Below are positions 16,930-18,036 of a DNA stretch of 64,000 nucleotides, in pieces (positions within the stretch are counted from its first letter, which is position 1; each line of letters opens with the position of its first letter). The position numbers and the translations under genes were made by a program. The DNA is from Candidatus Omnitrophota bacterium (GTDB lineage: Bacteria > Omnitrophota > Gorgyraeia > Zapsychrales > Fredricksoniimonadaceae): NCBI GenBank assembly GCA_044225175.1, contig JBGAJA010000004.1, positions 81,631-145,630 on the forward strand, written 5' to 3'. The notes under the pieces were generated by a model that searched no databases, was not told the DNA's origin, and saw only the letters and a program-made list of their open reading frames with translations.

Positions 16930-18036
16930 TTACCTACAATGTCCAAGAATACAAGAATAACCCGCACAACAAGGCTTAACAAGAGAGCAAAGAGGAGGAT
17001 TCGTGCAAGAGCCAGTCCCTGTAGCAGTTCCAGTAGCAGTTCCCGCCCCACCTCCAGAAGCACATGGAGCACACAACGATGCAACACAACAATAAAGAAG
17101 ATTATCCGAACAATCTCCATCATCAATACATGCTATGTTTTGAGCTGAAGAATGTGCGGAGCCCGTTGATGAACCTGTTGAACTTCCAGTGGATGACCCG
17201 GTCGAGCTTCCGGTAGATGAACCTGTTGAACTACCTGTAGATGAACCTGTCGCACTTCCTGTCGATGAGCCTGTTGAGCTTCCGGTGGATGAACCTGTCG
17301 AACTTCCTGTCGATGAACCTGTTGAGCTTCCTGTAGATGAGCCTGTTGAGCTTCCGGTGGATGAACCGGTTGAACTTCCGGTGGATGAACCTGTCGAACT
17401 TCCCGTGGATGAACCGGTTGAACTTCCGGTAGATGAACCTGTCGAACTACCCGTGGATGAACCGGTTGAACTTCCTGTTGAAGAACCCGTTGCACTTCCT
17501 GTTGAAGAACCCGTTGAGCTTCCTGTAGAGGATCCAGTACCACTTCCATTTCCAGAATTGTTGCCCTGAGCATCACATGCATGAAAGTTAGCTTGATGAG
17601 CGACCTTAGAAATAGGATCTATACATTCATTGGGATAGCAATTACTCTTAAATGTTCCATCACAATCATAACCGCACTTACCTGTAAGGTGATTTATATC
17701 GTTGTTAGGTGTGCAACCCGGATGGATACCACAATAAACTAAATACCCACTTCCCATTCGTACGGAACTCTTACCATCTGGAGGAAGGATAGTATCTGTG
17801 CTACTTGCTATTGCATATGGATTCCCGTTAGTCCCTTTCTTAATATCATAAATAACAATCTTCCCGGTATTAGAATCCAAACCTGTTACTCTAAATCCAC
17901 TGTCATTAGCAGCACAAGGATAGTCGGGGTCGTCAGCAAAGCTTTGTGAAGAAAAAATTAAAAGAAAAAAAAGTACGAGGCTGGTATTTTGAATGATTTT
18001 AATAAATTGATTGTTTGGCATGGTCAACATATTCAT
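16930..18036 (-). CDS. Secreted Cys-rich protein with a long (SSTG)n linker
   Basis: Signal peptide (cleavage near SFA/DD). Cys-rich N- and C-terminal modules. About 150 aa of SSTG/SATG repeats. Confidence 0.6.
   Translation of the reverse strand: MNMLTMPNNQFIKIIQNTSLVLFFLLIFSSQSFADDPDYPCAANDSGFRVTGLDSNTGKIVIYDIKKGTNGNPYAIASSTDTILPPDGKSSVRMGSGYLVYCGIHPGCTPNNDINHLTGKCGYDCDGTFKSNCYPNECIDPISKVAHQANFHACDAQGNNSGNGSGTGSSTGSSTGSSTGSATGSSTGSSTGSSTGSSTGSSTGSSTGSSTGSSTGSSTGSSTGSSTGSSTGSSTGSSTGSSTGSSTGSSTGSSTGSSTGSATGSSTGSSTGSSTGSSTGSSTGSSTGSSTGSAHSSAQNIACIDDGDCSDNLLYCCVASLCAPCASGGGAGTATGTATGTGSCTNPPLCSLVKPCCAGYSCILGHCR
17140..17580. repeat. About 18 tandem copies of a 24-bp coding repeat (GTGGATGAACCTGTTGAACTTCCG on the plus strand; encodes SSTGSSTG on the minus strand)
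   Basis: The periodicity is directly visible. It creates the artefactual plus-strand ORF 17189-17569 (VDEPVELP)n. Confidence 0.85.

Follow-up and report, generated by a model that had tools for sequence, protein, structure and literature searches.

Organization of the locus

The window, that is the whole stretch of DNA analysed here, comprises 64,000 nucleotides of contig JBGAJA010000004.1 from a Candidatus Omnitrophota bacterium. At 16930-18036 its minus strand carries a gene (the target) for a predicted exported protein in which two cysteine-rich parts are joined by a Gly/Ser/Thr spacer. Directly upstream lies the gene of a small secreted protein, the partner. The features of the two genes are as follows.

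16930..18036, minus strand: target coding sequence, 368 amino acids, stop included in the span (open reading frame (ORF) list; span as in the preliminary description of this DNA)
17935..18036, minus strand: signal peptide, residues 1-34, predicted by rule, with cleavage between SFA and DD
17548..17934, minus strand: N-terminal 8-Cys domain, residues 35-163 (129 residues), with Cys at 41, 102, 108, 121, 125, 133, 138 and 154
17152..17547, minus strand: Gly/Ser/Thr spacer, residues 164-295, with a strict (GSxT)31 array at 17164-17535
17062..17130, minus strand: 6-Cys module 1, residues 303-325, CIDDGDCSDNLLYCCVASLCAPC, loop lengths 5, 6, 0, 4, 2
16936..17007, minus strand: 6-Cys module 2, residues 344-367, CTNPPLCSLVKPCCAGYSCILGHC, loop lengths 5, 5, 0, 4, 4
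18041..18286, minus strand: partner gene, 81-residue small secreted protein with 2 Cys (ORF list and alignment of relatives)
18325..18352, minus strand: promoter-like site TTGACA-16-TATATT, identified by its match to the consensus (11 of 12 positions), about 38 nt before the partner gene

The target is a genuine gene of Candidatus Omnitrophota bacterium. The G+C content of its third codon positions (GC3, 0.19-0.29) is close to that of its neighbours (0.27-0.39) and gives no compositional sign of recent horizontal transfer, despite the adjoining tRNA-Arg gene. Its true start is likely the third Met (MLTMPNN, window 18030), which is the start called on an independent assembly of the same organism and has AGGAG 7 nt 5' of the ATG. 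The predicted signal peptide is of ordinary type (32-34 residues), with an n-region containing K, the core SLVLFFLLIF (Kyte-Doolittle peak 2.79) and small residues at -3 and -1, and the product looks like a protein exported via the Sec pathway. Within the part coding for the signal peptide, an A8 homopolymer (T8 on the coding strand) lies at 17965-17972, and a contig from another sample (L107) ends inside it; the tract could be a frameshift-prone site, or merely a coverage artefact.

The mature protein would be of about 31.6 kDa with a pI of about 5.1 and contains 20 Cys in 334 residues. The number of Cys is even in every part (8, 6 and 6). The C-terminal tail of 73 residues is composed of two 6-Cys modules split by GGGAGTATGTATGTGS, with a single residue between the end of module 2 and the end of the protein (...CILGHCR). 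In the preliminary description the flanks of the spacer had been credited with about 10 and about 14 Cys; that they are Cys-rich holds, the counts themselves being 8 (residues 41-154) and 12 (73-residue part). The 132 residues of the spacer are 62 Ser, 34 Gly, 32 Thr, 3 Ala and 1 His. Signal peptide, Cys parts and spacer are all seen, in agreement with the earlier view of a modular secreted protein that is rich in Cys and whose linker is a hyper-repetitive run of Gly, Ser and Thr, and we hold this structural description with high confidence.

On the minus strand the gene order is a transmembrane (TM) + TPR protein (18523-20640), tRNA-Arg(CCT) (18417-18494), the promoter-like site, the partner gene, the target, a family 2 glycosyltransferase (GT2), a radical-SAM/SPASM protein and a 581-residue membrane protein. 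The partner ORF ends 4 nt before the first ATG of the target, the gap between target and GT2 is 22 nt, and the GT2 and radical-SAM genes overlap. From the partner gene downward no terminator-like site was seen between the genes. The short gaps, together with this, make co-transcription likely: by its arrangement the partner gene is very likely co-transcribed with the target, and transcription probably runs on into the GT2 and radical-SAM genes in this genome. TTGACA-16-TATATT is a candidate promoter of the two-gene unit; promoter-like sites show no excess in the region as a whole. An AAGGAG ribosome-binding site stands in front of the partner gene. Co-expression of the 81-residue protein with the target, proposed in the preliminary description, is borne out by the 4-nt gap, the promoter-like site, the AAGGAG and an adjacency that is kept in relatives.

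The spacer is a near-perfect peptide repeat on diverged DNA

Tandem Repeats Finder (TRF) reports an array at 17168-17526 with a period of 24 bp, 15.0 copies, 82% matches and a score of 431. In the reading frame the strict array consists of 31 units of 12 bp, equal to 15.5 units of 24 bp (17164-17535), and it is flanked by degenerate units, with which the total comes to about 17 units of 24 bp (17140-17553). An earlier estimate of about 18 tandem 24-bp units over 17140-17580 is therefore right as to the kind of unit and slightly too high as to their number, which is 15-17. The 24-bp period arises, as first described, from two alternating codon sets, GGT-TCA-TCN-ACN and GGA-AGY-TCR-ACN; mean unit identity is 81-83% inside a codon set vs 56% across sets. 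Since a TCN Ser codon cannot become an AGY Ser codon in a single synonymous step, the ancestral duplicated unit would have been the 24-mer.

The peptide encoded by the array is nearly perfect, with 29 GSST and 2 GSAT units. Across the 31 units, codon positions 1 and 2 differ at 2 of 248 sites, both giving Ser to Ala, and the 124 third codon positions vary heavily. The 24-mers have a mean identity of 82% (range 67-100%), and the longest exact internal repeat is of 32 bp, in two copies offset by 72 bp:

17264..17295: 32-bp exact repeat, first copy, at which an independent k = 31 contig (L113) ends
17336..17367: 32-bp exact repeat, second copy; an independent k = 31 contig (L106) stops at 17338

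The near-perfect periodicity that had been attributed to the DNA is thus found at the peptide level only. Nor does the suggestion that copy number changes easily fit an array whose units are scrambled at synonymous sites and whose exact homology never exceeds 32 bp. Differences that are almost all synonymous, and exact repeats no longer than 32 bp, point to an array that is old and has been held constant at the peptide level, and the spacer looks like a product of selection on the peptide and not of recent repeat expansion, nor like a fresh slippage-prone tract. A perfectly repetitive peptide on non-repetitive DNA argues against the reflex by which a repeat is taken to mean phase variation.

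The antisense frame shares its wobble positions with the GSST frame, so that the synonymous-site argument alone cannot pick the frame. Two other frames are open through the array, one on the plus strand (17189-17569, 126 residues, (VDEPVELP)n) and one on the minus strand (17133-17582, 149 residues), which likewise has its wobble positions in common with the GSST frame. Both were rejected as genes, having no start context, signal peptide or flanking domains, and are by-products of the repeat; on the truncated contig L113 the gene caller chose such spurious frames. We chose the GSST frame because the signal peptide and both Cys domains are read in it without interruption, and because its direction is that of all neighbouring genes.

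Via the 81-residue neighbour, which is present in a public protein collection, two Logan (k = 31) contigs were reached in samples SRR28480385 and SRR28480381. Over 6949 bp L106 matches the window with 100% identity, up to its end at window 17338; L113, reached via the GT2 gene, begins at about window 17293. Wherever they overlap the window, the two independent short-read assemblies are 100% identical to it. Their ends coincide with the two copies of the 32-bp repeat, which makes the structure of the array consistent from one assembly to another, and neither spans the array; the repeat count of the window is therefore that of one assembly, and an error by multiples of 72 bp is possible. The exact target protein was not found in a collection of 15 billion proteins with any of three possible starts. 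In L107 (SRR28480381) the TM + TPR gene has two single-base deletions vs window 18523-20640 and is predicted as two ORFs; this is a pseudogene variant, or else the assembly is in error.

The target and its partner form a conserved two-gene cassette

The 81-residue protein has three database relatives, one identical, one with 54% and one with 47% identity, and each is followed directly by a gene for a secreted protein that contains Cys or is rich in it. The partner has a strongly conserved motif, KVYAG-x-L-x-M-x-TYYP-x-P-x-G-x-Y-x-x-LT, which extends across the end of the signal peptide and the first ~20 mature residues. Conservation across the predicted cleavage site suggests that this stretch may be a sorting or assembly signal.

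In the 47% lineage (L109-L112) the next gene encodes a signal peptide, a Cys-rich N-domain, a (TGT-D/E/N-T-A/G)n linker with DNA periodicities of its own (42 and 12 bp) and Cys modules. Its N-domain is 26% identical to that of the target and shares six of the eight Cys and a GCTP motif with it; their local alignment scores 63, compared with 34.8 +/- 6.4 for shuffled sequences (z = 4.4), a value that none of 500 shuffles reaches. The signal comes from the isolated N-domains alone: BLASTP with the full proteins of the window and L110 gave no usable match, owing to the low-complexity region. On the strength of this alignment and the synteny we accept remote homology for the 47% lineage. For the 54% lineage (L108) the first 88 residues of the next gene are available; they comprise a signal peptide and 2 Cys and match the start of the N-domain weakly (z = 2.8).

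The cassette protein of the 47% lineage (L110:832-1998) matches TIGR02232, 'cysteine-rich acidic repeat' (2.8e-14, 52.6 bits vs a cut-off of 20.8), and also DUF4215; NF033849 (ser_rich_anae_1) gave a match of 0.0026 for the relative's protein only. A paralogue upstream of the 81-residue gene in the same lineage shares the N-domain and linker at ~93% nucleotide identity and has six modules of the form C-x5-7-C-x5-6-CC-x3-4-C-x4-8-C. Going by the sequences, the 81-residue gene and the modular Cys-rich gene are a conserved two-gene cassette of a rare Omnitrophota family, present in a few related bacteria that are likewise uncultured. The large protein of this cassette is modular, and its linker and Cys modules differ between lineages and paralogues.

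Some details of the related loci are worth recording. In L109, L110 and L111 (ENA ERZ272478xx, Logan ERR3094296) Cys-rich paralogues with differing C-terminal module sets lie on both sides of the 81-residue gene. Between L110 and L111 this gene is 100% identical and the flanks differ by 5.6%, and the downstream genes show 25 non-synonymous and 17 synonymous codon differences in 216 codons.

Elsewhere the family is scarcely to be found. Neither the target nor the 81-residue protein belongs to a family in Pfam, NCBIfam, PHROGs or PADLOC; two FliH matches of the target in NCBIfam were dismissed as single-residue artefacts of the repeat, and the target has no TIGR02232 or DUF4215 match in Pfam or NCBIfam. 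The N-domain and C-terminal part, joined without the linker, found no match in a word-indexed search of a protein database of 5.8 billion clusters, nor did a linker-free composite of the relatives' proteins, which are cut at contig ends and apparently absent from it. An exhaustive phmmer search with the N-domain against 1.84 billion representative proteins gave a single match (P0001, E 8.6e-6). It was rejected as a homologue, the signal being six copies of a short GRVYVYDL-like beta-strand motif, repeats which we take, by eye, to be FG-GAP-like. Pattern scans for the N-domain in 185,579 species genomes and 241 million metagenome records returned nothing, as did scans of viral contigs with the N-domain and 81-residue alignments. 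The N-domain and the 81-residue partner are, by these comparisons, two protein families that carry no annotation. The general design, a Ser/Thr/Gly linker with small disulfide-rich modules, is already familiar; the constituent domains and the 81-residue partner are undescribed and very rare.

A weak resemblance of the C-terminal modules to cystine knots in Cys spacing

Both C-terminal modules have a C-C-CC-C-C framework, with six Cys in about 24 residues. The consensus of the inhibitor cystine knot (ICK) is C-x(3-7)-C-x(3-6)-C-x(0-5)-C-x(1-4)-C-x(4-13)-C; by our reckoning module 2 (5, 5, 0, 4, 4) fits it and module 1 does so except in its last loop. The fold is further defined by disulfides I-IV, II-V and III-VI, the last of which passes through the ring. 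A profile made from five modules of the relative and module 2 of the window was searched against all PDB sequences. It gave 29 matches at E up to 10, almost all of them ICK toxins, the best being Aca toxin 1 (E 0.0033); theraphotoxins, maurocalcin, omega-atracotoxin and omega-conotoxin MVIIA were among the others, as were Dickkopf and Dumpy. The matches are of marginal significance, and the Cys and a D-CC-S motif account for most of the signal. The preliminary description had called the modules disulfide-knotted. The framework accords with this; the proposed search for the Cys pattern (granulin, EGF, toxin-like knots) in Pfam and PDB sequences gave no significant match to any knottin, EGF, granulin or other Cys family. 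For the window's own modules a resemblance to knottins is therefore weakly suggested, by Cys spacing.

Glycosyltransferases and other genes of the window

Two genes of the window encode potential glycosylation components:

15918-16907, minus strand: GT2, matching PgfS (1.1e-60) and ArnC (2.2e-32)
4974-6509, plus strand: PMT_2 protein of the GT-C type, Pfam 27.7 vs a cut-off of 26.1 bits, 11 kb from the target

Against the PgfS model the GT2 scores 205 bits, below the 500-bit cut-off. It is 62-64% identical to genes in five metagenome-assembled genomes; two of these bear the label Candidatus Omnitrophota, another two that of uncultured Planctomycetales and the fifth that of an uncultured bacterium. 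For the radical-SAM gene, identity to relatives from metagenomes reaches 77%. We take the organism, in line with these comparisons, to be a member of the Omnitrophota. The radical-SAM product has a SPASM domain and a weak likeness to the peptide maturases WgkB, CefB and StsB. Adjacent GT2 and radical-SAM genes also occur in about 20 of 30 related, Omnitrophota-like loci from genomes and metagenomes (L003-L005, L081-L105), with varying flanking genes. No convincing Ser/Thr-rich or Cys-rich ORF was found near the pair among 105 loci.

Systems of the GtrB/Pgf type attach glycans to Ser/Thr-rich disordered regions outside the cytoplasm and shield these from proteolysis (PMC12041528). The target has a region of this kind, as judged from the predicted signal peptide and the 132-residue spacer. 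Linkage of transferase genes with the target across relatives was not found in the ~20 related loci with the GT2/radical-SAM pair.

Several other features of the window deserve mention. The overlapping, strongly conserved GT2/radical-SAM pair (14885-16907, minus strand) would seem to merit separate study. The 581-residue membrane protein (13139-14884, minus strand), whose gene comes next after that of the radical-SAM protein, has a weak ICMT/PEMT-like C-terminal match only. On the plus strand, 1922-6509 holds genes for glutamate-cysteine ligase, glutathione synthetase and glutaredoxin, then PMT_2 (GT-C), then MetH, and 10239-13109 encodes a 956-residue protein with no match in Pfam, NCBIfam, PHROGs or PADLOC. 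Two giant WD40 proteins are encoded on the minus strand at 28309-36093 (2594 residues) and 36587-47356 (3589 residues, also with an AAA_5 domain); TRF arrays with periods of 129 and 255 bp at 31619-32492 correspond to WD40 units.

Proposed function and alternative explanations

Omnitrophota are uncultured, mostly ultra-small bacteria that are suspected to depend on or attack other cells. We read the target as an exported, tethered binding protein within the two-gene cassette, an interpretation to which we assign a probability of roughly 0.55. After Sec export the Cys of the N-domain and of the two modules, even in number in each (8, 6 and 6), would form disulfides, by which the N-domain would be stabilized. 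The (GSST)31 spacer, of about 130 residues, would be intrinsically disordered and serve as a long flexible tether. By analogy with known substrates the tether would probably be O-glycosylated in the periplasm or at the surface, and so be stiffened and protected from proteases. It might then hold two binding parts apart in an extracellular factor for adhesion or binding to another cell or a polymer. That the protein acts as such a binding tether is a tentative proposal, and one that we put somewhat below even odds. An extracellular binding role fits the host-dependent lifestyle proposed for the phylum: host-dependent, predatory or parasitic traits have been proposed for Omnitrophota (PMC10066038), as has a predatory or parasitic lifestyle in a preprint (bioRxiv 10.1101/2023.11.21.568195). 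A lineage-restricted cassette whose product is exported, tethered and rich in disulfides makes a reasonable candidate for the contact of Omnitrophota with other cells.

A bolder version, which we regard as a long shot, is that the cassette represents a new bacterial family of cystine-knot modules on a glycosylated Gly/Ser/Thr stalk, with the 81-residue partner as anchor or chaperone, by which ultra-small cells would attach to or intoxicate a host or prey. If true, it would be a bacterial counterpart of the ICK peptides of animals and plants, with modules shuffled between paralogues. Should the six-Cys modules turn out to be genuine cystine knots, they would provide a rare case of the fold in bacteria and a source of stable mini-protein scaffolds.

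A number of observations weigh against these interpretations. For a surface location, the target sequence offers no lipobox, LPXTG, PEP-CTERM, type IX secretion system (T9SS) C-terminal domain or other recognizable anchor. As regards glycosylation, the target, the 81-residue gene and the TPR protein are all absent from the ~20 loci with the GT2/radical-SAM pair. The pair, occurring there without the target, appears to have a function of its own and not to be dedicated to the target, which weakens the idea that the adjoining GT2 serves the linker. An assignment of the TM + TPR protein (18523-20640) to the GT-C enzymes found no support, its TM domain having no family or PDB match. As regards the modules, module 1 has 2 residues in its last loop, fewer than in the ICK consensus as we have taken it. 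Against Pfam, at E up to 10, the C-terminal modules matched Dickkopf_N alone (E 1.3), phmmer against PDB sequences gave nothing relevant, and a profile of the relative's modules alone scores the window's modules at 3.6-4.9 bits only. AlphaFold2 models made without an alignment are unusable, with a mean predicted local distance difference test (pLDDT) score of 48 for the C-terminal part (61-72 in module 2 only) and 37 for the N-domain, and a Foldseek search of this C-terminal model found no match in the PDB.

The array invites another explanation, advanced as to size in the preliminary description, that the target is a contingency locus at which slippage yields surface variants of differing size or, via frameshift, of differing phase. 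The array is tandem and in frame (31 units of 12 bp), the linkers of the two paralogues in the related organism differ by a few repeat units, and the A8 tract (17965-17972) lies in the part coding for the signal peptide. Such loci would be expected to have near-identical units, whereas those of the target are only 82% identical in DNA with no exact repeat beyond 32 bp, and their almost wholly synonymous differences mark the copies as old and diverged. Moreover, every unit is a multiple of 3 nt, so that slippage alters length and not phase, and the two short-read assemblies, which stop at the 32-bp repeats, are 100% identical where they overlap the window. We consider this explanation unlikely. 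Were the Cys clusters (CC pairs and the C-x2-C of module 1) instead to bind metal, the target could be a metallothionein-like or metal-scavenging protein of an anoxic habitat. Twenty Cys in 334 mature residues with CC and CxxC motifs would suit this, as would the origin of relatives in groundwater, sediment and similar metagenomes by record names, habitats that we presume to be often anoxic. However, the six-Cys framework recurs in relatives whose module profile matches disulfide-knotted toxins, the Cys counts are even (8, 6, 6) in a protein that is predicted to be exported, and there is neither a His/Cys pattern of a known site nor a family match, which makes metal binding improbable.

The two modules might also be the active part of a secreted toxin or antimicrobial effector, acting as pore or channel blockers or enzyme inhibitors that are delivered on the linker or released by proteolysis. 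This idea draws on the C-C-CC-C-C framework, on spider, scorpion and cone-snail ICK toxins as the best PDB matches of the relatives' module profile, and on the predatory or parasitic lifestyle already mentioned (PMC10066038; bioRxiv 10.1101/2023.11.21.568195). It seems quite unlikely, since those matches are marginal (E 0.003 to 1) and driven by Cys and D-CC-S, the window's own modules do not match the relatives' profile, and no processing sites, immunity gene or secretion system were found nearby, nor any PADLOC or PHROGs match. Finally, the radical-SAM/SPASM enzyme could have the target as its substrate, cross-linking the C-terminal Cys modules by thioethers, as in sactipeptides or ranthipeptides, or modifying them otherwise, with glycosylation by the GT2; the result would be a product like a ribosomally synthesized and post-translationally modified peptide (RiPP), or one dependent on a maturase. 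The enzyme gene lies 1 kb downstream on the same strand, beyond the 22-nt gap and the GT2 overlap, and its SPASM domain and faint similarity to WgkB, CefB and StsB would be in keeping. Yet all maturase matches fall well short of the curated cut-offs, the best of them being to cofactor maturases. Precursor and maturase genes would be expected side by side; the ~20 pair loci contain neither the target, the 81-residue gene nor a similar ORF. To our knowledge, moreover, radical-SAM RiPP precursors do not resemble a 368-residue protein with a Sec signal peptide. We regard this explanation as very improbable, and prefer the reading of the target as an exported, tethered binding protein.

Comparison with known systems

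The closest comparison is with the streptococcal GtrB/Pgf-type glycosylation of Ser/Thr-rich disordered regions (PMC12041528; PMC5856776). Like the target, the substrates of these systems are exported and contain a long Ser/Thr-rich low-complexity region that is expected to act as a protease-resistant spacer. The target also adjoins a PgfS-like GT2 (1.1e-60), and a PMT_2 GT-C gene lies in the window. The host of the target, by contrast, is of another phylum than the streptococci and presumably diderm; the repeat is strictly GSST, and glycosylation is proposed here by analogy. The GT2 of the window, moreover, falls short of the model (205 vs 500 bits) and is conserved with its radical-SAM partner independently of the target.

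A very long glycosylated Ser-rich stalk for a binding domain is known from the serine-rich repeat adhesins of Gram-positive bacteria (Fap1, GspB, Srr family), to which the spacer of the target may be likened. The target differs in having neither an LPXTG motif nor a long atypical signal peptide, and its spacer is much shorter (132 residues), is built from another unit and has no sequence similarity to theirs. No SecA2/Y2 or Gtf family of the accessory Sec (Srr-type) kind was present among the ~22 ORFs scanned of the ~45 in the window of at least 100 residues.

ICK mini-proteins such as omega-conotoxin MVIIA and the spider theraphotoxins have, like the modules of the target, six Cys in ~24 residues in a C-C-CC-C-C framework, and ICK toxins are the best PDB entries matched by modules of the related cassette protein. 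In contrast, the modules of the window show no significant similarity to them and are compared here by Cys spacing. ICK toxins are free peptides cut from a propeptide, whereas the modules of the target are C-terminal parts of a 368-residue bacterial protein. The TIGR02232/DUF4215 proteins of myxobacteria and other bacteria are likewise secreted and contain small disulfide-rich modules, one of which is found in the related cassette protein, although the target itself has no such match. In its general plan the target thus resembles familiar designs: bacterial adhesins, the linkers of glycoside hydrolases and the Cys-repeat proteins of myxobacteria.

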